Positions 12,529-31,153 of a stretch of DNA of 32,000 nucleotides are shown here, one piece after another. Position 1 is the first letter of the stretch, and every line of letters begins with the position of its first letter. The notes below the pieces were generated by a model, which saw only the letters and a program-made list of their open reading frames with translations, was not told where the DNA came from and did no database searches. Source of the stretch: Dehalococcoidia bacterium (GTDB taxonomy: Bacteria; Chloroflexota; Dehalococcoidia; Lucifugimonadales; CAZENU01); assembly GCA_965261815.1 (NCBI GenBank), contig CBDHDR010000002.1, positions 1,223,820-1,255,819 of the forward strand, given 5' to 3'. Made by a program: the position numbers and the translations under genes.

Positions 12529-13194
12529 TCATGCTTCTGTAGTGGCCGGCTCGCTCCTGTCCCAGCCGTCGACCACCCAATAGCCGACCCGGGGCACTTC
12601 CGCTACCGTCGCCAGCCCTTGGGCACGCTTTAGCCGTTGGATGTTATACAGGTGGGTGATTTCCTCGTAGTAGACGTGCCTCATGGTCGCCTCGAGCGTC
12701 CAGACCGAGCCCCCCTCCGTCTGAGTGACGCCGGACTCGTGCGCCTGTAGGGTGAGGTCCGACTCTGGAGAGCCCGAGCCCTCGCGGAAGAGAGTGTGGC
12801 CTCTCAGGAAACCGACCGAGCGCCTGTCCAGGACTCGCCGGGCGAGGCTGATCCCCTCCTCCAGCCTCACCATGATGTCGTCGATCTCCAGGCGGCGCGA
12901 GCTGTCCAGGCGCCGGTCGGCCGCGTCGGCAATCACAGTCAAGTCTTCTACCCCATATTCGCCTCGGGGGAAGAGCGTCTCTCCCCACCGGACAGCCAGC
13001 CACCGGTAGATGAGCGCCGCCATGTGGCTCAGCTGGATACGGATACTCCACTCGCTCCACTCCCACCGGTCCGACGCGAAGTCGAGCTGCGCGTCGCTCA
13101 GCCCCTCCACCTCGGGCGTGATCAGGTCGTAGAGGGTGGCGAACTCTGGAAAGAGTACGCTGCCCGGTGCGTCGTCGGCGATGGGTATGCTCAC
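12529..13194 (-). CDS. DinB-family (four-helix-bundle metalloenzyme-like) protein
   Basis: 221 aa. GTG start overlaps the stop of the upstream truncated Ddn-like ORF (GTGA). LSDAQLDF...WSIRIQLSHMA...EEITHLYNIQ resembles DinB/DinB_2 His-containing helices. Confidence 0.6.
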   Translation of the reverse strand: MSIPIADDAPGSVLFPEFATLYDLITPEVEGLSDAQLDFASDRWEWSEWSIRIQLSHMAALIYRWLAVRWGETLFPRGEYGVEDLTVIADAADRRLDSSRRLEIDDIMVRLEEGISLARRVLDRRSVGFLRGHTLFREGSGSPESDLTLQAHESGVTQTEGGSVWTLEATMRHVYYEEITHLYNIQRLKRAQGLATVAEVPRVGYWVVDGWDRSEPATTEA

Positions 13195-13496
13195 GTTGTT
13201 TCCTCCACGGCGGTCTTGTCCCGAATCTCCACGTCGCCGTTCGCTCGAAGATTATACGCCCACACCGGATTCTTCGGCGCGCCGCCCATCGAGCCTACCA
13301 ACACGTAGTTGTTCCCGTCCTTCACCCGCATGAGCGGCGTCTTGCGTATCGCCCCGCTCCGGTTCCCCCGGTTCGTTACGATGATGACGGGCAGCCCGGA
13401 ATCGCGCAAGGTCGTTCCCTCTGTTCCCCCGCTGCCCTCGTAAAGCTCGACCTGTTCACGCACCCAATCCGACGGGGACGGTATGTACTCGGCCAT
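13191..13496 (-). CDS. C-terminally truncated paralogue of the Ddn-like deazaflavin oxidoreductase (possibly non-functional)
   Basis: 101 aa. About 85-90% identical by eye to residues 1-97 of the 11883-12317 product. Diverges after EIRDKT and stops where the DinB gene starts. About 45 C-terminal residues are missing. Confidence 0.6.
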   Translation of the reverse strand: MAEYIPSPSDWVREQVELYEGSGGTEGTTLRDSGLPVIIVTNRGNRSGAIRKTPLMRVKDGNNYVLVGSMGGAPKNPVWAYNLRANGDVEIRDKTAVEETT

Positions 13497-13637
13497 AGGC
13501 CGCTCCTTGCGCCTGATCGCCGACGGCTTTGCCTTACTCATAAGCCGAAGCGCCATCATAGGTCGGATCGCCGGGTCTCTGATGGTGATTTGGCGCATCC
13601 ATAGTCTACGATGGAGTGAACCAATTTGGGAGACTCC

Positions 13638-14495
13638 ATGATGACCACTTTAGACCAGCATGAGGCCGGAGGTGTGGCTGGGCGGACCGTGCTGATCACT
13701 GGCGCCTCGTCCGGCATAGGCAAGGCCACCGCCAAGAGGCTGTTGAAGGAAGGCTACTCTGTCTATGCCGCAGCACGCCGAGTCGACCGGATGCGAGACC
13801 TCGAAGACCTGGGCGCCATCGCGCTCAAGATGGATGTTACCAACGAAGAAGATGTCGTTGCCGGCGTGGAGCGAATCAACGTGGAGCAGGGGGGCACGGA
13901 CATCCTCGTCAACAACGCCGGCTTCGGATTGTACGGGGCGATGGAGGACACGCCGCTCGACGACGCGCGGTACCAGTTCGAGGTCAACCTGTTCGGGGCG
14001 GCGAGGCTGACCCAACTCGTCCTTCCCTACATGCGAGAACAGGGCGCGGGGAAGATCGTGAACGTCTCCTCGATCGGTGGGAAAATCTATACCCCGCTGG
14101 GGTCCTGGTACTACGCCACAAAACACGCGCTCGAAGGATGGTCGGACTGCCTGAGGTGGGAGCTCAAGCACTTTGGCATCGACGTCATAGTCATAGAGCC
14201 AGGACTCATCCGCACCGACTTTGGCAATGTCATGCGTGGGCCCCTGGTGGAATATTCGGGCGACTCCGCCTATGGCGGTATCGTCAAGAGGCTGACGGAA
14301 AGGACGAAGAACCACGGCCGCGGGTCGCCGCCATCGGTCATCGCCGACACGGTCCTCAAAGCGGTCCAGGCCAGGCGGCCCAGGACACGCTATGCGACCG
14401 GCCAGTACGCGAAGACGGCCCTCCTCCTTCGCAGACTGATCACCGATCGGATGTATGACCGGCTCATGGACCTGATGGCCGCTCCCAGGCGGTGA
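13638..14495 (+). CDS. SDR-family short-chain dehydrogenase/reductase
   Basis: TGASSGIGKA (TGxxxGxG), NNAG, YATKHALEGW (YxxxK). ATG 13638 follows GGGAGA. Track start 13626 is TTG. Confidence 0.88.
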   Translation: MMTTLDQHEAGGVAGRTVLITGASSGIGKATAKRLLKEGYSVYAAARRVDRMRDLEDLGAIALKMDVTNEEDVVAGVERINVEQGGTDILVNNAGFGLYGAMEDTPLDDARYQFEVNLFGAARLTQLVLPYMREQGAGKIVNVSSIGGKIYTPLGSWYYATKHALEGWSDCLRWELKHFGIDVIVIEPGLIRTDFGNVMRGPLVEYSGDSAYGGIVKRLTERTKNHGRGSPPSVIADTVLKAVQARRPRTRYATGQYAKTALLLRRLITDRMYDRLMDLMAAPRR

Positions 14496-14670: not shown

Positions 14671-15225
14671 TTAGTCGTCGCTCTGCTGGAGCCCTTCAAC
14701 GCTTAGTTCCAAGTGTGCGGCCGCCTCGACATACATCTGAACGGTCGCCTTATCTAGATGTATTGTCCGGACGTCCCTTCCATGTGCTATGAGATTCCGC
14801 ACAGCAGCCATATCTTGAAGGACTGCAGCTAACGAATCGTCGATGACACCGTCCTTGCGCAGTAACTCGACTTGCTTTCGTATCGACGCCCGTCGACTTA
14901 CGTGGCGCGTCTCAGCAAGGTCTGCAATGGCTCTTTCGACCGAGGCCCATGACGCAAGAATCGTAATCCTTGGATCAGTATCGACATAAAAGGTTCTTGG
15001 CGATAAGTCTTCGTCTACCGCCTCCAGCGACCTAGTCTTCTTTGTGAGTTCCTGAAAGACGGGTCTGAAGTCCACTTGCCAGTCCTTGTATCTGACCTTC
15101 TCTATGAGAGGGACTAGTTTAGACAGAGGGGACCGTAGCATGAGAAGGGCCACAACCGCGACCAACGGCCAGGCCGCAGCATCAAGTAGAGAAACTAGCA
15201 ATTCAACTAGCTCCACACCAGTCAA
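14671..15225 (-). CDS. membrane-anchored protein with C-terminal HEPN/Abi_C-like RN-x-x-x-AHG motif
   Basis: 184 aa. TTG start after AAGGA. One hydrophobic helix (AAAWPLVAVVALLMLRSPL). C-terminal ILASWASVERAI...LQDMAAVRNLIAHGRDV gives Rx4H. Lies in the low-GC islet. Confidence 0.6.
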   Translation of the reverse strand: MTGVELVELLVSLLDAAAWPLVAVVALLMLRSPLSKLVPLIEKVRYKDWQVDFRPVFQELTKKTRSLEAVDEDLSPRTFYVDTDPRITILASWASVERAIADLAETRHVSRRASIRKQVELLRKDGVIDDSLAAVLQDMAAVRNLIAHGRDVRTIHLDKATVQMYVEAAAHLELSVEGLQQSDD

Positions 15226-15369
15226 CGTCCTTGTCTCCTCTCCCCTACGAAAGAACTTGGCACCCTAGTCAGCGACCCTGTATCAGCCGGTTGCTAGGGT
15301 TCGAGCTCTTCCGCCGGAGTTCAGCACGCGTTCGAGATGTGCTATGTCCAAGACTCAGCGGATAAGATG

Positions 15370-16797
15370 TCAAATGCGTAATGTCAGTCGTAGCTGCTCG
15401 TACTTCTCGTCACTCCCAATGTTACTAAGTCGGTCCCTCCGGTACGTTCCGATAAAGTCCAGCATTTCCTTCAGTCGCGGGTTAATGGCTCGCGTCTTCA
15501 GGGTGGCGGTGAGCCTTTGATACTCGGTTGCACAGGAGTCGAATTGCAGTCGTGAAGCTACCTCAGGATCGAGTACAAGCTTGACGAATGCTCGGATGTG
15601 AGAGTCTGAGAATCTAGTCAACAATTCGTCGTAGTGGTCTTGGGCAGCCCAGGAAACACCATAGCCATTCCCGATCCGACACATGGTTACCGCTTTGACG
15701 TACTTTGATCGCACGGGCCTAGGGACTTCACCATTGGCCGGTACAAGGCGTTGAAGAAGCCGCGCTGGGGCTGCCTCGGTAAAGAAGTTGTCCATGCCGT
15801 AGTGAGCTGTGGTGAGATTGTCAAGAGTCACCGCCATTTCGGCAGTAAGTACTTCAGTCGTGAGAAACTCCAAACCCTCGACTATTTCAAGGAATTCTCG
15901 TGCGAGTTTCGCCCTTTCCACCTCACCATTAGCCGCGAGCATCGCATGTTGCAAGCCGACTCCTCGGCGCGCCTCGGTTGAAACAGCCTCCCAGATCGGT
16001 TTCGCAGCTAGTTTGAGATTGTCTCTGACGTGAGCGTCAACCGTCGTGTCCGTGTACATGCCGAATACCGAGCGAAGTAACGATTCTGACAGGTCCTCAG
16101 TTAGCGATGGCAATGCCGCTTCGATGTGTGGCATGTCGGCTTCAGAGAGGTGCTGTGTCCGCAGGCTGTGAAGCAGTTTACGAACTTCGATAACCGGACC
16201 GGCAGGTTCCTTTGCCAAAACCTCCACTATGCACGTCTCTAGCCAGGATATAATCTGTAGTCCTGTTATATGATTCTGATTTGGATGTGCAGCACTAGCG
16301 TAGTTCCTCATATTCCGAACATAGTCGAGATGGCGAAAACCGTTTTCTGTGATGATACCGGTCGTGCGGCACCCTAGAATGAGTTCCCAATCGTCAAGCT
16401 TCTCCAAGTCGGCTTCGTTCCTGAGCTTGGATCGGCGGGTTGAGTCGCTAACCGCGCTGTCGAAGAAATACCGTAGATCGAACCGAGCCACCTTCTCCCG
16501 CAGATTCCTAACGGTTTCATTCCAGATATAGTTCAACGCTGAGTCGAAGAGGCCGACAGCGCATGCAGCCACGAACTTGGAAATGTAAGACGCGACCGAC
16601 TTTTGGTCGTCCGTCAAGGACTCGAGAACGATAGGCATATTTTGGAATACCGGACGCCGACGTTCGTAAGGGACCAGGATCTGGTCTTTAGGTAGCCCTA
16701 CGTAGTCCAAATAGGAGTCGAGTTGAGTGCCAAAAGTCTTGACGGCTGGGGCAATCTCTGCACTTGAGTGGGCTTGAATACTCTCGTTGGTGTCCAT
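15370..16797 (-). CDS. hypothetical 475-aa protein with N-terminal HEPN/Abi_C-like module and helical C-terminal domain
   Basis: GGAGG RBS 6 nt upstream of ATG 16797. FRHLDYVRNMRNYASAAHPNQ gives an R-x4-6-H type signature after a helical segment (AACAVGLFDSALNYIWNETVRNLREKV). Sampled lines about 45-50% GC. Confidence 0.6.
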   Translation of the reverse strand: MDTNESIQAHSSAEIAPAVKTFGTQLDSYLDYVGLPKDQILVPYERRRPVFQNMPIVLESLTDDQKSVASYISKFVAACAVGLFDSALNYIWNETVRNLREKVARFDLRYFFDSAVSDSTRRSKLRNEADLEKLDDWELILGCRTTGIITENGFRHLDYVRNMRNYASAAHPNQNHITGLQIISWLETCIVEVLAKEPAGPVIEVRKLLHSLRTQHLSEADMPHIEAALPSLTEDLSESLLRSVFGMYTDTTVDAHVRDNLKLAAKPIWEAVSTEARRGVGLQHAMLAANGEVERAKLAREFLEIVEGLEFLTTEVLTAEMAVTLDNLTTAHYGMDNFFTEAAPARLLQRLVPANGEVPRPVRSKYVKAVTMCRIGNGYGVSWAAQDHYDELLTRFSDSHIRAFVKLVLDPEVASRLQFDSCATEYQRLTATLKTRAINPRLKEMLDFIGTYRRDRLSNIGSDEKYEQLRLTLRI

Positions 16798-17164
16798 TCG
16801 AAGCCTCCAGTACGAAGCCTAAAGGCGAATCGGCGACTGCTTCGAGGCAAACCGTACGCCAGAGACACCACGATTCGCCGTGCTGCCATGAAGGATCTGC
16901 CGCCGAGTCACCAAGTAATATCTCCGTACCGCATTATAGCGATCTGCCCAGCCAAAGCTCGACGGCGGTGCCGACAAGGACACGCTGGCCCTGCTCAGCC
17001 CCAGCAGCTCGCGTCCCCTACGGCGGTTGGGGCTGTTTTTGTAGTTTGTGGTGGCCTGCCGTCTGCCATCGCGCTTGCTGTAACGTCCCTTGAGGTGAGC
17101 CGATCACGGGCGCTCGTGATTGGCTTCGCGTCGCTACCCGGCGGCGGTGATGTATCATATCCGC

Positions 17165-18049
17165 ATGAGTACCACGTCAGACATCAGGGTCGGCGTCCTG
17201 TTCCCGACCACGGAGATCGGGACGGACCCGGTCGTCATACGGGACTACGCCCAGACCGTCGAGGGGCTGGGCTACGACCACATGCTCTTCTTCGAGCACG
17301 TCCTCGGCGCCAACGCCGAGTCGCCGCAGGCGCGCGGCAAGCCCTGGCAGCACACGACGCCATACCACGAGCCATTCACGCTGTTCGGCTACCTTGCGTC
17401 TGTTACCGAGTCGATAGAGTTTGCCACCTGCATCATGGTGCTGCCGCTGCGCGAGACGGCGCTCGTCGCCAAGCAGGCGGCGGCCGTCGACGTGCTGTCC
17501 GGCGGACGGCTGAGACTCGGCGTTGCCGTCGGGCTCAACGACGTCGAGTACGAAGCGATGGGAAAAACCTTCCACGACCGTGGCGCGCGCATGGAGGAGC
17601 AGATCGAAGTGCTCAGGCTGCTCTGGACGCGCGAGCTCGTCACCTTCGAGGGCCGCTGGCACAAGATCACCGATGCCGGCATCAACCCGCTGCCGGTCCG
17701 TCGGCCTATACCGCTGTGGATCGGCGGCGGGGCAGACCCCGTAGTGCGACGCATCGGCCGCCTTGCCGACGGCTGGATGCTGCCGGGCACCATGCGGCAG
17801 CCGGACGACGCCGCGCGCGCCATCGACACGATGAGGGACCACGCCCGGCGGGCGGGCCGAGACCCCGACGAGATCGGCCTGCAGCGGGTCGTCTCCGGCG
17901 ATGGCCCGGCGGAGTGGGCAGACTCTGTCCGCGAGTGGCGTCTCCTCGGGGTTACCCACTTCGCGGTCAGCCCGAGCGGGCCGACGCCGGACGCGCAGTT
18001 CGAGAAGCTGCGGCAGTTCCGGGAAGTCGTATCCGAGGTGGGCGCCTGA
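17165..18049 (+). CDS. LLM-class (luciferase-like) F420-dependent oxidoreductase
   Basis: 294 aa from ATG 17165. VGVLFPTTEIGTDPVVIRDYAQTVEGLGYDH...GGRLRLGVAVGLNDVEYEAMG...INPLPVRRPIPLWIGG is typical of the LLM TIM-barrel family. Confidence 0.85.
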   Translation: MSTTSDIRVGVLFPTTEIGTDPVVIRDYAQTVEGLGYDHMLFFEHVLGANAESPQARGKPWQHTTPYHEPFTLFGYLASVTESIEFATCIMVLPLRETALVAKQAAAVDVLSGGRLRLGVAVGLNDVEYEAMGKTFHDRGARMEEQIEVLRLLWTRELVTFEGRWHKITDAGINPLPVRRPIPLWIGGGADPVVRRIGRLADGWMLPGTMRQPDDAARAIDTMRDHARRAGRDPDEIGLQRVVSGDGPAEWADSVREWRLLGVTHFAVSPSGPTPDAQFEKLRQFREVVSEVGA

Positions 18050-18912
18050 TGAGAATCGGGGTAGTCTTCCCGCAGATCGAGATCGGGCCCGACCCCGTGG
18101 CCGTCCGCGACTACGCGCAGGCGGCGGAGTCGCTGGGGTACGCCCACGTGTTGGCCTACGACCACGTGCTCGGAGCCAACGCCGGCAGCCGACCCGGCTG
18201 GAGCGGCGCGTACAGGCACACCGACCAGTTCCACGAGGTGATGGTCCTGTTCGCATACGTCGCCGGGCTGACCGAGACGGTGGAGTTGGTCACCGGCATC
18301 CTCATACTGCCCCAGAGGCAGACGGCGCTCGTCGCCAAGCAGACGGCCGAGGTCGACATACTCAGCGGCGGCCGGCTGAGGCTCGGCATAGGCATCGGCT
18401 GGAACGACGTAGAGTACGAGGCGCTGAGCGAGGACTTCGGCAACCGCGGGCGGCGGTCCGAGGAGCAGATCGAGGTGCTCCGGCTGCTGTGGACGAACGA
18501 GCTGGTCACATACCGGGGCCGCTGGCATACGGTCGACGACGGCGGTATCAACCCGCTGCCGGTACAGAGGCCGATCCCGGTGTGGTTCGGCGGGATGGAC
18601 GAGCGCGTCCTGAAGCGGTTGGCCAGGGTCGGCGACGGCTGGATGCCCCAGGGCGGCCCGGACGACCGGCTGCGCGCCATGGCAGAGCGCGTCAGGACCT
18701 ACGCTCGCGAAGCCGGCCGCGACCCCGACGAGATCGGCGTCGACGGCAGGCTGACCATCCAAGGCACACCCGACGACTGGGCCCGAGATCTGGCCGGCTG
18801 GCAAGACCTCGGGGCCACCCACGTGTCCCTGACCACGACGGGCGCCGGCCTGCAGACGCCCCAGGACCACATCGACGCGATCACCCGGTTCAAAGAGGCG
18901 GTCCTGCGGTAG
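18049..18912 (+). CDS. LLM-class F420-dependent oxidoreductase (tandem paralogue)
   Basis: ATG 18049 overlaps the upstream stop (TGATG). The product is colinear with the preceding gene (MRIGVVFPQIEIGPDPVAVRDYAQAAESLGYAH...GGRLRLGIGIGWNDVEYEAL...). Confidence 0.85.
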   Translation: MRIGVVFPQIEIGPDPVAVRDYAQAAESLGYAHVLAYDHVLGANAGSRPGWSGAYRHTDQFHEVMVLFAYVAGLTETVELVTGILILPQRQTALVAKQTAEVDILSGGRLRLGIGIGWNDVEYEALSEDFGNRGRRSEEQIEVLRLLWTNELVTYRGRWHTVDDGGINPLPVQRPIPVWFGGMDERVLKRLARVGDGWMPQGGPDDRLRAMAERVRTYAREAGRDPDEIGVDGRLTIQGTPDDWARDLAGWQDLGATHVSLTTTGAGLQTPQDHIDAITRFKEAVLR

Positions 18913-26502: not shown

Positions 26503-27678
26503 CTAGTCGCCGAACTCGTCCGGTTGCCAGGCGAGATGGGGGTACCGCCCCTCCAGCAGCCTGACGTGCTCGTCGGTCAGCAGCGGCAACTCTCCCGATA
26601 CCGGCCCAGCCTCGTCGAGCCGCTCGGTCGATACGTCGCCCTTCGCCTGCACCAGCACCTTGAAGCCGCCGAGTCCATCGGGCTTGACGAGCTCGCGCAT
26701 CGCCATCAGGTTCGCCATGCGGCGCGACTCCGGCATCGGCTCGCGGCGCATCCGATCCAGCCAGCCGCTCGACCCCATCTCCTTCAGGAACCGGGCCTGG
26801 CTTCGGAGACTCAGGGCCCGCAGCCCCGCGCGGCGACCCTCCTCGACGACGTGGGTGAAGTCGACGTGGGCCGTCAGGTCCTGCTCGCCAACGCGGTCGT
26901 AGAGAGACGCTCCGCCGGTGTGCCGGTAGTAGCCCTGTACCGTGTCGCCACTCCCGGCCGGGTCGACCTCTCCGCGAACGTAGCCGTAGTCGATCGTGAG
27001 CACGAACCCTCGCTCCAGAGCTTCCGCCACGTCGGCCATCCACGGCGCGATGCCGGTGTTCAGCTCGCCCCGGAAGCCCTCCGGCAGCTCCACTCCAAGC
27101 CGCTCGACGTAGGCTGCGAGCTCCGGCTTCGACGGCTCGTCCAGCTCCTCGGCGAACCTGCCGCCCCGGACGACGACGTAGACCTCGAGGACACGCCCAC
27201 CTCGTATCTCGAAGCGGTGGACCGGGAACGCGTCCAGCAGCTCGTTGGACAGCACGCAGCCTACGACGTCGGCGACCGGCATACCGGACGCGACCACGTG
27301 TCTGACCGCGTCGACGGCTTGCGACGGCCGTGCACGGTCGACGGTGACGTAGTGCAGGGCGCCGGCGAAGGGAGTCAGGGCGCGCTGGACGTAGGAGACG
27401 ACGTCACGGGCCAGCAGGCCGCCCCCGGCCCCCATCTCGACGGCGGTGAAGCATCCCGGACGGCCGAGCGCCTCCCACATGCGGGAGAGCTGGACCGCGA
27501 CCAGCGCGCCGAACGCCGGGTGCGCCGCCGGGCTGGTGTAGTAGTCCGCGTCGGGACCGGTGCCCGTGTAGTACCCGCCGTGCGGATCGTACAGGGCCGC
27601 CTCCATGAACTCCGCGAACGTAACGCGCCCCCGCTCGCCGATCCGCGCCCGTATCTCCCGCTCCACCCCGCTACTCAC
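26503..27678 (-). CDS. class I SAM-dependent methyltransferase, MidA/NDUFAF7 (DUF185) family
   Basis: GTG start. GRVTFAEFMEAALYDPHGGYY...DYYTSPAAHPAFG...VEMGAGGGLLARDV...LSNELLDAFPVHRF. Confidence 0.85.
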   Translation of the reverse strand: MSSGVEREIRARIGERGRVTFAEFMEAALYDPHGGYYTGTGPDADYYTSPAAHPAFGALVAVQLSRMWEALGRPGCFTAVEMGAGGGLLARDVVSYVQRALTPFAGALHYVTVDRARPSQAVDAVRHVVASGMPVADVVGCVLSNELLDAFPVHRFEIRGGRVLEVYVVVRGGRFAEELDEPSKPELAAYVERLGVELPEGFRGELNTGIAPWMADVAEALERGFVLTIDYGYVRGEVDPAGSGDTVQGYYRHTGGASLYDRVGEQDLTAHVDFTHVVEEGRRAGLRALSLRSQARFLKEMGSSGWLDRMRREPMPESRRMANLMAMRELVKPDGLGGFKVLVQAKGDVSTERLDEAGPVSGELPLLTDEHVRLLEGRYPHLAWQPDEFGD

Positions 27679-27891
27679 GCCGCGCGTGCCTCGGCCTCCG
27701 GCAGCACAGCGAACTCAAGGACGGCTTCGGTGATAGTGGTCAATGGCGTTGCCTATGCCAACATCAGACGTTCGCCTTCGGTCCGCGAATTGGACCGCGG
27801 AGTTCCCCGCGCCGTCTCAATCTGGATTCGCCGTGGGGTGGGGGTAGACCTCCACATTTCGAACGGGTCCAATGCTAATGCTGGCTCCCAG

Positions 27892-30522
27892 CTAGTGGGC
27901 TGAACGAACAAGATTCAAGCAATATTGATTGGCCGGGTCCCGTTCCAACCCAATGTTCGCTATATCGAGCGCCCTGCTAGTGTTGCCAATGTTTCGATAA
28001 AGCCAAGCAAGTCGGGAGCAATCCGTAGCGGTTAGTATATTCAAACGTCGTTCCATCGCCTGACTTGCTCGTTCAATCAGTTCCTGAAGTCCTCCAGACC
28101 ACGCTACTTCAACATTCCGCCTCTTGAGCTCGCTGAGAAGAATGTTTAGGCGATTCGCATTTCTGCTTATCTCTTCCCTGTCGGAAGTTGACAGCAACAT
28201 CGCCTCGCTCAAAGCATGGACCGCTCCAAGCCAGTCTTCCCTCCGTTCGCAAAGCCCCGCAAGTCTCAACCACGCGTCCAGCCGATCAGGTGGAGCTGCG
28301 ACTTCTAAGAAGCTCCTTAGGTAACGTATTGCCCGTTCCATCGCATCGGAAGAGTCGTCGACTTCCATCACCAAGTCTGCGAGTCTAAGATATGCTTTTG
28401 GTACCCTCTCTGCCAAATACTCCAAGACCGGCAAGACTTCGTCCAGCGTCTCTGCCTCCTCGCTTGCGCGTTTTGCTACGGCCTGGACAAGATTATCAAT
28501 CCTCGGTAGCACTCCACGCGCAGCGTCCTCTTGTTTCCCCGCCCCGAATTCCATCAAAAGTTTTCGGTCCTGCTCAATCGCGGCTTTGAACGGGCTCACT
28601 TCCAGCTTCCGCCGTCCGTATTCTGCTGCCGCAAGTGGAACGCCGACAAAAGCCCCCCCTCCTTCCAAAGAGTCTTCAACAAAGCCGACTCGATCCACTA
28701 GAGAATAGCGACTCAGCTCTTCCAATGCGCTAGATACATCAAACCGCTCCGTGCCGGGACGGAGGGATACCGCCTCAACAGCGACCTCTGGCACAAAGAC
28801 TCGCCAGCTGCATAGCAAGAGAAACACTCGCTGTCCAGCAAGGCTCAACGCGCTATATGTTCTTTGGAAAAGAGACCGTAGCAAATCGTCAGACGATGCA
28901 ACAACACGTCTCGGAGCCACCGCTTGTCCTTCTTTGGCAACTGCTCCGAGCAGAATCTTGATAACATATGGATGACCGTCAGATTCTCGAATCAGTGTTT
29001 CCTTGTATGTTGGAGTAAGGAGACTGACAATGCCTAGACGGCTTGCGTGTTCGTCAATAAGCCAATTCGCCTCTTCGTCGGTCATGCCACCTATCTCAAT
29101 ATGGTAGTCGCCAACAAAGCTTCTGAATCGGGTCGTGATCAACACCTTATTGGGTGGCCGAACGTAAGTGTCAACCCATTTGAATGCATCAGAGGGATTC
29201 TGCATGGTTTCGAAATTATCAAGTACAAAGAGAGTCGGCTCTCCCCAAGCGCCTTTTTCTAGGCAGTCCTGGAAGTAGGCCCGTCGATCGAGCTTACCGT
29301 TGGCCGTATGGGCCGCCTCCAGCAGGTCTACTGCGGCATCCGCAATGTTGTCTTCTGTCACAACTCGCGGCGAAACAGGCTTTGGTCCGAATTCAAGGAG
29401 ATCGATGTCTCGAGCACTTATCCAAAGAATGACCTTGTAAGGTGGGGCCTCTTGGCTAACAATTTCACGAATAGCTGAGATGGCGATCGTGGTCTTTCCT
29501 ACACCTCCCGGACCAGTCAACGACACTATAGGATGCTGTTCGAAATTCACCAACTCTTCTCTAACCCGACTCTCTAAGACGTTCCTAGCAATGTGACCAA
29601 TCGGCATCGGAGGAACGTTTGCGAACGTGTTACCAAGGATCTCAAGCTCCGCACTGCCTTCAGTTTCGCTCGAAGGGAGACGCGAAGGAGGGTCTGACCA
29701 CTCCGAGCCATCCTTGATCGTCACGTCGTTTGTTATATACGACAGCGCCTCGAAATGGTTACTTTTGTAATTGCCGTTAGGTAACGCAATATCGCGGATG
29801 TCAGGATCAGAAAACACAAGAGGAGTATGGATAGGACGATCGCAGTAGAAATATACTCCATCCTGTAGCTGAACATTCCTCTCTCTCTTCAGATAGTCGA
29901 AAGGTGACGTGTCGGATAATAGTGGCGATACACGATATTTCCCCGACAGGTTTTGATGAAGATGAACCCAAGGGATTCCAAATATCACCAAGTTGTCGAC
30001 GACAGCACTCAAAGCTTCGGCGAGGCTAGGGCAACATCGGGCACACTGTTCGGTTGTAGGGGCTCCGTGTCCTCGGCTTCTATTTCGGAAGCTAACGCAA
30101 AGATCGAAGAATTGTCGCAATGATACGCGGTTGCTCAACTGAGCCTCAACTCCTATCTCGTTCGCCGCTTGGGCCATATTGGCCACGGCTGCAAACCGCC
30201 AATCTCCGTGACCTACTCTCTGGGTTAAATCTCTCACTAAGTCAAGTGCGTTGCCGCTAAAGAGTTGGCTGGATGGTCCAATCAAAGCAGCATGAAGAGT
30301 CTCAATCCAATTGCCAAACGAGTCAGTCCGAAGTAGTCGATGCTCCAGGGAGTACCGCTGCCGATCTACGTCGTCGCCGACACATGCCACAACTCCAGCT
30401 GTGACTATCTTTGCCAAATATTCGAGTTTTAGGCTCAGAGCGTGGAAGTACGCATGATCGCCATCTTCTTTGTCGAGTGCAACGCGAGTATCCATCCGCT
30501 CGAATAGGAGATTCTGTACCAT
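27892..30522 (-). CDS. STAND (NB-ARC-type) P-loop NTPase with RN-x-x-x-GHG N-terminal module and TPR-like C-terminal region: candidate antiviral NLR/Avs-like protein
   Basis: 876 aa. Walker A LTGPGGVGKTT, Walker B LFVLDNFE, NB-ARC-like KVLITTRF and GHPYVIKIL, winged-helix-like LEELSRYSLVD. N-terminal roughly 330 aa contain CVSFRNRSRGHGAPT. C-terminus is helical-repeat-like (AWLYRNIGNTSRALDIANIGLERDP). Sampled lines about 50% GC. Confidence 0.8.
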   Translation of the reverse strand: MVQNLLFERMDTRVALDKEDGDHAYFHALSLKLEYLAKIVTAGVVACVGDDVDRQRYSLEHRLLRTDSFGNWIETLHAALIGPSSQLFSGNALDLVRDLTQRVGHGDWRFAAVANMAQAANEIGVEAQLSNRVSLRQFFDLCVSFRNRSRGHGAPTTEQCARCCPSLAEALSAVVDNLVIFGIPWVHLHQNLSGKYRVSPLLSDTSPFDYLKRERNVQLQDGVYFYCDRPIHTPLVFSDPDIRDIALPNGNYKSNHFEALSYITNDVTIKDGSEWSDPPSRLPSSETEGSAELEILGNTFANVPPMPIGHIARNVLESRVREELVNFEQHPIVSLTGPGGVGKTTIAISAIREIVSQEAPPYKVILWISARDIDLLEFGPKPVSPRVVTEDNIADAAVDLLEAAHTANGKLDRRAYFQDCLEKGAWGEPTLFVLDNFETMQNPSDAFKWVDTYVRPPNKVLITTRFRSFVGDYHIEIGGMTDEEANWLIDEHASRLGIVSLLTPTYKETLIRESDGHPYVIKILLGAVAKEGQAVAPRRVVASSDDLLRSLFQRTYSALSLAGQRVFLLLCSWRVFVPEVAVEAVSLRPGTERFDVSSALEELSRYSLVDRVGFVEDSLEGGGAFVGVPLAAAEYGRRKLEVSPFKAAIEQDRKLLMEFGAGKQEDAARGVLPRIDNLVQAVAKRASEEAETLDEVLPVLEYLAERVPKAYLRLADLVMEVDDSSDAMERAIRYLRSFLEVAAPPDRLDAWLRLAGLCERREDWLGAVHALSEAMLLSTSDREEISRNANRLNILLSELKRRNVEVAWSGGLQELIERASQAMERRLNILTATDCSRLAWLYRNIGNTSRALDIANIGLERDPANQYCLNLVRSAH

Positions 30523-30702
30523 TTAGGTATTCACCTGTTCGCTTGGTTTTTCCTCAAGCCAAAGCTCCACGGCTTCGCTAATGTGCTCGAGGGCCGCCTC
30601 CTGAGTATCGCCGTGGGCCGTGCAACCTGGGAGCTCGGTCGCTTCGGCAACATATGAGCCGTCCTCGTTACTCCAGTAGATGACCATCTCGTACTTGTGC
30701 AT
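30523..30702 (-). CDS. HicB-like (UPF0150) small antitoxin-fold protein
   Basis: Not in the ORF track (59 aa). Hand translation of the minus strand: MHKYEMVIYWSNEDGSYVAEATELPGCTAHGDTQEAALEHISEAVELWLEEKPSEQVNT. GAAGGGGA RBS. Its TAA (30523-30525) directly abuts the ATG (30522-30520) of the STAND gene. Confidence 0.75.
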   Translation of the reverse strand: MHKYEMVIYWSNEDGSYVAEATELPGCTAHGDTQEAALEHISEAVELWLEEKPSEQVNT

Positions 30703-30733
30703 CAGTCGTCCCCTTCAAGCCGGGGATTCCGTG

Positions 30734-31153
30734 CTAAGGGGCTTCCCAGGGATTTACCAGGTCGACTCCCAGCCCCTCGAAGTCCCGGACATTCCGGGTG
30801 GCGACCGCCAGGTCATGCGCCTTGGCCGTTCCTGCGATGAGTATATCGACAATATCAGGGGGGCGCCCGGACCGGACCGCGTCCGCCCGAAACCGTGCGG
30901 CCCACTCCGCACTGGCCCGGTCGATGGGTAGAATGCGATCCGCGTAGCGCGCGAGCAGACTCAAGATGTCCGCTCGCAGCCGCTCCCGGCGCCTTCCGGG
31001 TGGTGCGAGCTGCAGCCCAAACTCCAACTCATGGACCACCAAGGACGCCAGCCACAGATCGGCCGGTTGGGCCAGAAAGGCAATGACCTGGAGACTGGGC
31101 CGGCTCTTCGTCATCTCCGACACGACGTTCGTGTCGAGGAGAAAACCCCTCAC
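30734..31153 (-). CDS. vapC: type II toxin VapC (PIN-domain ribonuclease)
   Basis: LLDTNVV...HELEFG...DILIAGTA...TRNVRDF: the four acidic PIN positions in the expected order. Overlaps the antitoxin gene by 4 nt. Confidence 0.85.
   Translation of the reverse strand: MRGFLLDTNVVSEMTKSRPSLQVIAFLAQPADLWLASLVVHELEFGLQLAPPGRRRERLRADILSLLARYADRILPIDRASAEWAARFRADAVRSGRPPDIVDILIAGTAKAHDLAVATRNVRDFEGLGVDLVNPWEAP

Follow-up and report, generated by a model that had tools for sequence, protein, structure and literature searches.

The window analyzed here, a 32,000-nt stretch of a Dehalococcoidia bacterium genome (GenBank assembly GCA_965261815.1, contig CBDHDR010000002.1, positions 1,223,820 to 1,255,819), contains a low-GC islet of two genes that encode proteins of 184 and 475 aa (Table 1). 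A first-pass annotation, made from the letters alone, had described the islet as a horizontally acquired abortive-infection (Abi)-type module that combines a membrane-tethered and a soluble HEPN protein. The results below leave HEPN domains, horizontal acquisition and an Abi-type role plausible, but an obligate two-gene module is not supported. On balance, we think it probable that the islet consists of two independently mobile, single-gene HEPN abortive-infection (or anti-plasmid) defence genes that lie side by side and do not form an obligate two-component system.

The two genes are open reading frames (ORFs) on the minus strand, and, as the first-pass annotation had described, they are co-directional, separated by a 144-nt spacer and each provided with its own ribosome-binding site: GGAGG, 7 nt before the ATG of the 475-aa gene, and GAGAGGAG, ∼9 nt before the TTG of the 184-aa gene. 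An alternative start for the 184-aa gene is a GTG three codons downstream, which is the start used by its homologue P0121. The GC content of the two-gene region (14671-16797) is 52.6%, compared with 64% for the whole window, and the dip extends over ∼2.1 kb, with 100-400-nt windows mostly at 46-57% GC and two at 59-62%. Thus, the low-GC stretch itself is real, whereas the figures first given for it (45-50% GC over 2.6 kb, between genes of ∼70% GC) were off at both the islet and its flanks. The computed codon profile agrees with the foreign origin that had been proposed from composition: the GC content at third codon positions (GC3) is 0.55 and 0.58 in the two islet genes, compared with 0.78-0.94 in seven neighboring genes, and this codon-level deviation of both genes is far beyond noise.

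A renewed search of the islet borders, consistent with the first one, found no tRNA gene, and no meaningful direct, inverted or att-like flanking repeat was found. Similarly, the islet contains no tandem repeats and no Rfam matches, and the minus strand of the spacer has no promoter-like or terminator-like signal that exceeds those of shuffled sequences. An RNA antitoxin of the kind represented by the AbiF-like upstream repeats was rejected on these grounds. The spacer has no similarity to any related locus; nucleotide similarity to relatives is confined to the coding regions, and no conserved flanks were found.

Table 1. Features of the two-gene islet and its surroundings (positions refer to the window; residue numbers to the respective protein)
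Feature	Position	Strand	Description and basis
Low-GC islet	14700-16850	.	∼52-53% GC; between the SDR gene and the luciferase-like monooxygenase (LLM) gene
184-aa gene	14671-15225	-	ORF, TTG start; WP-signature transmembrane (TM) helix plus DUF4145; DUF4145 match, 50 homologues, architecture of PMC3710099
Single TM helix LLVSLLDAAAWPLVAVVALLMLR, residues 9-31	15133-15201	-	Kyte-Doolittle peak 2.2 at residues 9-29; coordinates checked
W19-P20	15166-15171	-	Invariant in 35 sequences
Four-helix HEPN domain, residues 85-183	14677-14973	-	AlphaFold2 (AF2) helices 85-106, 115-124, 130-147 and 159-183; pLDDT 77-92
RNLIAH (R143-H148)	14782-14799	-	Putative catalytic motif of the 184-aa protein; R143, N144 and H148 invariant
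Intergenic spacer	15226-15369	-	144 nt; contains the ribosome-binding site of the 184-aa gene; from sequence
475-aa gene	15370-16797	-	ORF, ATG start; large unnamed family, members ∼470-480 aa; predicted solo HEPN-like RNase with helical-solenoid sensor
N-terminal HEPN-like (DUF4145-like) domain, residues 60-195	16213-16620	-	Likely; DSSP of the AF2 model compared with the 184-aa model
RNYASAAH	16285-16308	-	Putative catalytic Rx6H (R164, N165, H171); invariant in 31 sequences; translation checked
C-terminal all-alpha ARM/HEAT-like solenoid, residues 196-475	15373-16212	-	AF2 model; predicted trigger-sensing/oligomerization domain
F420H2-dependent quinone reductase gene	13191-13598	-	Host gene
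SDR gene	13626-14495	+	Islet neighbor; 62% GC
LLM gene	17120-18049	+	Islet neighbor, host gene; 68% GC
Second LLM-like ORF region	∼18100-18900		Followed by a GcvT gene
Second low-GC stretch	∼27600-30800		∼11 kb from the islet
876-aa ORF	27892-30522	-	NB-ARC/AAA_16 STAND NTPase domain at residues 319-531

The smaller product is a membrane-anchored HEPN protein, as the first-pass annotation had proposed. Its N-terminal hydrophobic helix was recovered by hydropathy analysis, and because basic residues follow this helix, a cytoplasmic location is predicted for the HEPN domain. DUF4145 (PF13643, HEPN clan) matches residues 84-160 above its cutoff (24.1 versus 23.1 bits), the precomputed PF13643 assignment is present on several homologues, and the E. 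coli relative is named 'DUF4145 domain-containing protein' in RefSeq. In a Foldseek search of the PDB with the AF2 model, the 26 best matches were all HepT/HEPN-type proteins with modest E-values (0.015 or higher), the best being the HepT chain 7bxo_F (probability 1.00, rmsd 2.6 Å, 95 columns, E 0.015). The third AF2 helix carries R143 and N144 at its end, and H148 lies just past it. Among 35 family members, down to 21% identity, W19, P20, W93, L122, R143, N144 and H148 are invariant. The HepT profiles themselves remained sub-threshold (PF01934, 20.3 versus 23.5 bits; NF047751, 23.7 versus 60 bits), and no MntA nucleotidyltransferase gene adjoins the 184-aa gene.

A class of membrane-associated HEPN proteins with a WP-signature TM helix and a DUF4145 HEPN domain (WP-TM) has been described computationally by Anantharaman et al. 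[quoted passage not shown] Because the 184-aa protein combines an invariant WP TM helix with a DUF4145 RNxxxH motif, it is a member of this class, an assignment that was made from the description of the class in that paper. The single N-terminal WP TM helix followed by a cytoplasmic DUF4145 domain is common to both, and nothing essential sets them apart; the window protein represents a Chloroflexota-type subfamily with few close relatives, the family being small (50 clusters at 90% identity). A metagenome scan for the family gave no match. No functional study of the WP membrane-HEPN class turned up in literature searches that were not specifically aimed at it.

In contrast to this small family, the 475-aa gene belongs to a large one. 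More than 752 homologues were obtained after clustering at 90%, all of ∼475 aa and none with Pfam domains, and the family comprises 1,042 clusters at 50% identity (E≤1e-3). It is found in 327 GTDB species of both bacteria and archaea, with hosts among the Chloroflexota, Cyanobacteriota, Bacillota, Pseudomonadota, Verrucomicrobiota, Bacteroidota, Nitrosotalea and Bathyarchaeia, on 91 plasmids (including those of E. coli, Klebsiella, Shigella and C. perfringens), in 28 IMG/VR contigs and in 50 of 5,426 complete E. coli genomes, on chromosomes as well as plasmids. The INPHARED phage genomes contain no homologue. No Pfam, NCBIfam or PADLOC model matched the family: PADLOC-DB 2.0.0 returned no model at E≤1 for either islet protein and none at E≤0.01 for the E. 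coli and C. perfringens homologues of the 475-aa protein. The sole profile match of the 475-aa protein was phrog_27609, a PHROG of unknown function (E 3.6e-65), and RefSeq labels the family members 'hypothetical protein'.

Several members of this family on enterobacterial and clostridial replicons have settings of their own. The 476-aa E. coli variant WP_001460374.1 is always accompanied by a BCCT transporter gene and a DUF2254 gene and occurs at at least 99% identity on 30 chromosomes and 20 plasmids (e.g. L089, plasmid pCFSAN061766; numbers with L denote loci). In the E. coli TCM_B_2 chromosome (L122, 5046-15373), the 476-aa variant abuts a P4-like satellite, the hotspot of which carries Drt3a/Drt3b. 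A 472-aa member, 45% identical, lies between HicB and Phd/YefM antitoxin genes on the 12-kb C. perfringens plasmid pCPCPLi6-1_3 (L088), and eleven small bacteriocin plasmids of C. perfringens carry this 472-aa member.

The first-pass annotation had also called the 475-aa protein a HEPN protein, and indirect evidence from conservation, topology and profiles agrees with this assignment. The AF2 model is all-helical (29 helices, pLDDT 87.6). In its N-terminal domain, helices α1 (84-106), α2 (136-146), α3 (151-168) and α4 (179-194) are arranged with an insert between α1 and α2, and the order α2-α3-(RN...H)-α4 mirrors that of the 184-aa HEPN domain. Both motifs that had been quoted, one in each protein, are present in the checked translations, and R164, residue 14 of an 18-residue helix, occupies the same place as R143 in the HEPN helix of the 184-aa protein. 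Conservation of the motif extends beyond the 31 close members listed in Table 1: R164, N165, H171 and P172 are at least 90% conserved in a set of 86 sequences with 22-46% identity to the query. Weak DUF4145 matches at residues 144-177 were obtained with 11 of the 31 close and 3 of the 86 diverse members, and weak Abi_C matches fell on the same segment. Further, a domain-restricted hhalign comparison with a 41-sequence alignment of the WP-TM DUF4145 family as the template paired R/N/H of the 475-aa family with R/N/H of the 184-aa family (P 1.5e-4 to 4.6e-4, 58 columns, probability 51%), compared with P 0.035-0.37 for the controls overall (reversed, 0.035-0.068; 40 column-shuffled, 0.042 or higher; C-terminal domain, 0.088). 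Taken together, it is likely that residues 60-195 form a HEPN-like domain.

The remainder of the 475-aa protein is an all-alpha, ARM/HEAT-like domain of ∼280 aa, with conserved NNFYNEP and GNGYGVS patches and conserved columns N337, E341, P359 and G380. The best Foldseek PDB matches of the 475-aa model were importins and designed armadillo repeats, at insignificant levels (E 0.05-0.5, TM-score ∼0.2), and searches of PDB sequences with two family profiles (A1, A4) found nothing.

Because the islet had been proposed to be a two-gene module, the co-occurrence of the two genes was followed in a census of ∼195 loci of the 475-aa family, in which the 184-aa family was located by hidden Markov model. 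The 184-aa gene lies beside the 475-aa gene only in the window and in one other lineage (L051/L184/L185, and also E. coli), and a conserved module is not supported: ∼98% of the 475-aa loci are without the 184-aa gene. When the 475-aa protein of the window itself was looked up by exact match, no indexed contig was returned; an additional locus, L203, is the window locus in another sample and therefore adds no independent information. Conversely, at eight 184-aa loci outside the two paired lineages (seven direct look-ups and one Citrobacter plasmid from a DNA search), none has a 475-aa homologue. The genes are co-directional in the window and convergent in the L051/E. coli lineage, and thus co-transcription of the pair is not conserved. 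Protein identity between the two pairings is 43% and 24%.

The second pairing is a mobile unit. A 2,515-bp segment is common to L051 and L185 (98.7% nucleotide identity), whose flanks are unrelated; of this cassette, ∼2,300 bp (all but the last ∼220 bp) is also present in L184, where the similarity stops inside the small gene. L184 further has ∼570 bp of left flank in common with L185. The same cassette, 98.7% identical to that in L051, is found chromosomally in 12 of the 5,426 complete E. coli genomes. In strains LR-31 and T28R (L204, L205; 9001-11515), the cassette consists of the convergent genes for WP_021570688.1 (468 aa, 'hypothetical') and WP_225394361.1 (DUF4145), and in both of these chromosomes, which were examined directly, it follows immediately after tRNA-Thr (thrW, proA side), at the end of the remnant of an integrative/conjugative element with an integrase fragment, HigA, TraJ, TrbJ and TrbL. 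Each half is also found alone with the same module boundaries: the 475-type half in prophage contigs L093/L094 (90% identical) and the WP-TM half in a Citrobacter IncHI2 plasmid (85% identical), beside a different gene. The simplest reading of the pairing data is that of two single-gene modules that are shuffled and sometimes stacked.

Two of the paired loci have peculiarities of their own. The small-gene ORF of L184 (4449-4982) has 177 instead of 194 aa, with ∼29 N-terminal codons of the longer form and its WP helix lost, and may be a natural truncation. L051 derives from the GTDB record of Chryseobacterium sp. 18061; the DNA that flanks its cassette has 54-60% GC, which we take to be much above expectation for Chryseobacterium, and this contig may belong to some other organism within the assembly.

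The genomic contexts of the 475-aa gene have a defence-island flavor. Neighbor clustering in 80 GTDB loci revealed no conserved neighbor (143 nearest neighbors represent 116 Pfam families, each with five or fewer occurrences), and a conserved partner for the 475-aa gene was rejected on this basis. The closest homologues (75-77% identical) stand in three unrelated contexts, all without the 184-aa gene: between PIN/AF2212 toxin-antitoxin genes and an RCC1-trypsin gene, within a TrwB/relaxase conjugative element (L086), and between MMPL and housekeeping genes. Direct neighbors of other members encode type I HsdR (L061, L011), pAgo (L009), an LmuB-like protein (L030) and PDC-S56 (L012), and Old and type I specificity subunits are among the further nearest neighbors. 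In L040, the neighbor is a SNF2-type helicase with HmaA as its best PADLOC match, which also matches the BrxH and DrmD models. Members of the 184-aa family stand alone between Rieske dioxygenase and NadA genes (L118, L119), lie in an island with BrxL, HNH-McrA, AbiTii and TmtA (L120) or are found among transposases (L121). The patchy distribution of both families and their defence-island and mobile-element contexts fit the Abi-type role that had been suggested.

Other genes recur beside the membrane HEPN gene. In three related metagenomic genomes (L081, 3298-4466; L082 and L083, 5001-6554), the WP-TM HEPN gene is followed by a gene for a 262-aa protein, which is a second recurrent partner; the pair is low in GC (GC3 0.43-0.48 versus 0.65-0.89 in the flanks), and the 262-aa protein, of which only 130 aa are left in L081, gave no match in Pfam or PADLOC. 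The gene adjoining the WP-TM HEPN gene in L120 (4718-5851) has an AbiTii-type N terminus (PADLOC AbiTii, E 7.5e-9), and a 303-aa neighbor in Citrobacter koseri pK820-1 (L206, 3891-4802) has an 'LRLLA...W...E..GYP'-like AbiTii motif that was matched by eye alone. AbiTii-type genes on these two unrelated replicons may be another recurrent neighbor of the family. The possibility that the 262-aa, 303-aa or 188-aa neighbors are themselves HEPN or 475-like proteins was rejected because neither profile nor BLAST searches supported it.

On the basis of its likeness to DARNA/PD-T7-3 and BxaP, two single-protein systems described below, we propose the following mechanism for the 475-aa protein. It would be a latent RNase, the DUF4145-like N-domains of which dimerize to form the active site (R164/N165/H171). 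The 280-aa solenoid would sense an infection cue and drive activation, probably via higher-order assembly, and the activated protein would cleave tRNA or other RNA and thereby cause growth arrest. The 184-aa protein is predicted to be tethered to the inner membrane by its WP helix with its DUF4145 HEPN RNase domain in the cytoplasm, where an envelope-level signal passed through the helix may switch it on.

Several observations weigh against two independent HEPN defence genes. The HEPN assignment of the 475-aa protein finds no significant backing in searches with the entire protein: its best score in the Pfam HEPN clan, DUF4145 at 16.1 bits, falls short of the cutoff of 23.1, the whole-alignment hhalign comparison of the 475-aa and 184-aa families was insignificant, and whole-chain Foldseek with the 475-aa model returned no HEPN structure and no match at E≤1e-3 in the PDB or BFVD. 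These results also bear on a rather different explanation, namely that the 475-aa protein is a non-nuclease helical scaffold or adaptor that serves plasmids and prophages (e.g. in anti-defence, partition or exclusion), with the R/N/H patch as a binding site. The resemblance of the whole chain to ARM/HEAT adaptors, the frequency of the family on plasmids and prophages and its match to a PHROG of unknown function would all be accounted for. However, the most conserved positions of the family, R164, N165, H171 and P172, have the spacing and helix position of a HEPN active site, a bona fide DUF4145 family aligns with it, profile to profile, ∼100-fold better (by P-value) than the best control, and chromosomal copies lie directly beside HsdR, pAgo and Drt3, and we regard the scaffold as quite unlikely. 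The association with defence islands, for its part, was counted among nearest neighbors and not set against a genome-wide background, and both families are known from sequence and models alone.

The pairing itself also speaks against full independence, because two rare families adjoin in two very distant lineages, once as a single mobile 2.5-kb unit. Pure coincidence explains this recurrent adjacency poorly, and the recurrence is non-random: with a small family of 50 clusters, two independent stackings are more than would be expected by chance, which leaves room for a facultative functional link. The genes could accordingly form a facultative two-component system in which the membrane HEPN protein and the soluble HEPN-solenoid protein cooperate and their pairing is selected, either because the membrane sensor recruits or hetero-oligomerizes with the soluble nuclease or because two nucleases cover each other's escape routes. 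The window genes adjoin each other, share a strand and have the same composition, the same families travel together in the 2,515-bp cassette of L051, L185 and the 12 E. coli chromosomes, and HEPN domains work as dimers (PMC13017515). Nevertheless, this explanation has to contend with the ∼98% of 475-aa loci and eight of eight other small-family loci in which the partner is missing, with the change from co-directional to convergent orientation, with the separate occurrence of each half of the E. coli cassette at identical boundaries, and with small genes that stand elsewhere beside the 262-aa protein, an AbiTii protein or none of these; we consider it rather less likely. About as doubtful is its boldest form, an undescribed two-HEPN immune system in which the WP-anchored membrane partner senses an envelope or DNA-entry signal and then recruits, hetero-oligomerizes with or licenses the soluble HEPN-solenoid nuclease. 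Finally, a compact and mobile pair could be a toxin-antitoxin addiction module, one HEPN protein being the toxin and its neighbor neutralizing it, so that the islet is maintained by stabilization rather than by phage defence. HEPN toxins that are countered by a protein antitoxin are well known (HepT-MntA), and HepT proteins are the best structural matches of the 184-aa protein, but each gene normally occurs without the other, no known antitoxin domain, be it a nucleotidyltransferase (MNT) or another, is present in either protein, and the convergent E. coli arrangement is atypical for toxin-antitoxin operons, all of which makes an addiction pair very improbable. Overall, two single-gene HEPN defence modules, independently mobile and occasionally stacked, remain the reading that we prefer.

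Solo HEPN immunity has precedents in DARNA (bioRxiv 10.64898/2026.02.22.705581), BxaP (PMC10799925), RAZR (PMC13017515) and HepS (PMC13043305). DARNA/PD-T7-3 (bioRxiv 10.64898/2026.02.22.705581; Vassallo et al. 2022, PMC9519451), of ∼455 aa and 55 kDa, joins a HEPN domain at its N terminus (R117x4H122) to a Pds5-like helical C-domain; it is a dodecamer, and once its C-terminal domains bind ssDNA that phage SSB presents, it cleaves the anticodon loops of tRNAs (bioRxiv 10.64898/2026.02.22.705581). The 475-aa protein is likewise a solo gene product of similar size, on mobile DNA, with an N-terminal HEPN(-like) domain and a ∼300-aa all-alpha HEAT/Pds5-like domain, a likeness that is architectural only and was drawn from the published description. 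The motif differs, being Rx6H at residue 164 after a ∼60-aa leader and an insert, compared with R117x4H122 in DARNA, and the PDB entries 9tra-9tre were not among the PDB matches of the 475-aa protein. The PADLOC 2.0.0 library presumably includes a PD-T7-3 model. Because the 475-aa protein has no PADLOC match, it is best described as a sequence-unrelated variant of the DARNA/BxaP design.

BxaP (Nat Commun 2024, PMC10799925) is a single protein with an N-terminal DUF4145 and a C-terminal HEAT-like helical domain that acts by abortive infection, and its homologues are embedded in type I restriction-modification or BREX loci (PMC10799925). The domain order is that of the 475-aa protein, members of whose family adjoin HsdR in L061 and L011. 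However, DUF4145 is strong in BxaP (HHpred 98.5%), which is rare, whereas it is below threshold in the widespread 475-aa family. RAZR/PD-T7-4, HepS and Ishtar are similar in being solo HEPN proteins with a patchy distribution on prophages and islands that cleave RNA once a phage or plasmid cue has activated them, but RAZR has a zinc finger, HepS has no accessory domain, Ishtar has a C-terminal alpha/beta domain, and these systems have neither a membrane anchor nor a solenoid. For the 184-aa protein, the closest structural parallel is with HepT of the type VII HepT-MntA systems, as described above; unlike HepT, it is membrane-anchored, scores far below the NF047751 cutoff and has no adjacent MNT antitoxin.

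Beyond the islet, the surrounding host genes encode F420-type redox enzymes, namely an F420H2-dependent quinone reductase and an LLM, and a second LLM-like ORF region precedes a GcvT gene (Table 1). Together with the closest relatives of the two islet genes, these genes point to a host in the Chloroflexota or Actinomycetota. The window contains a second low-GC stretch, in which an 876-aa ORF encodes a STAND NTPase. Its GC3 is 0.50 compared with 0.78-0.94 in host genes, and it matches phrog_24039 (E 9.5e-10) and has no convincing PADLOC match. It is probable that this ORF is a further immunity gene, of the STAND type (Avs-like), that was also acquired horizontally.

These findings are of value mainly because the 475-aa family is large yet anonymous, without a Pfam, NCBIfam or PADLOC model and annotated as 'hypothetical' everywhere, and because native E. 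coli copies exist, solo and paired, which make the questions of solo defence, synergy and trigger directly testable. If the two-HEPN system were real, the 475-aa family alone would still be a new and very widespread class of solo RNase defence proteins. Should the 475-aa protein prove to be a HEPN RNase gated by a solenoid sensor, defence catalogues would gain a common family of single-gene immunity proteins that is so far unannotated, and this second, sequence-unrelated example of the DARNA/BxaP design would help in asking how helical sensors gate HEPN nucleases.

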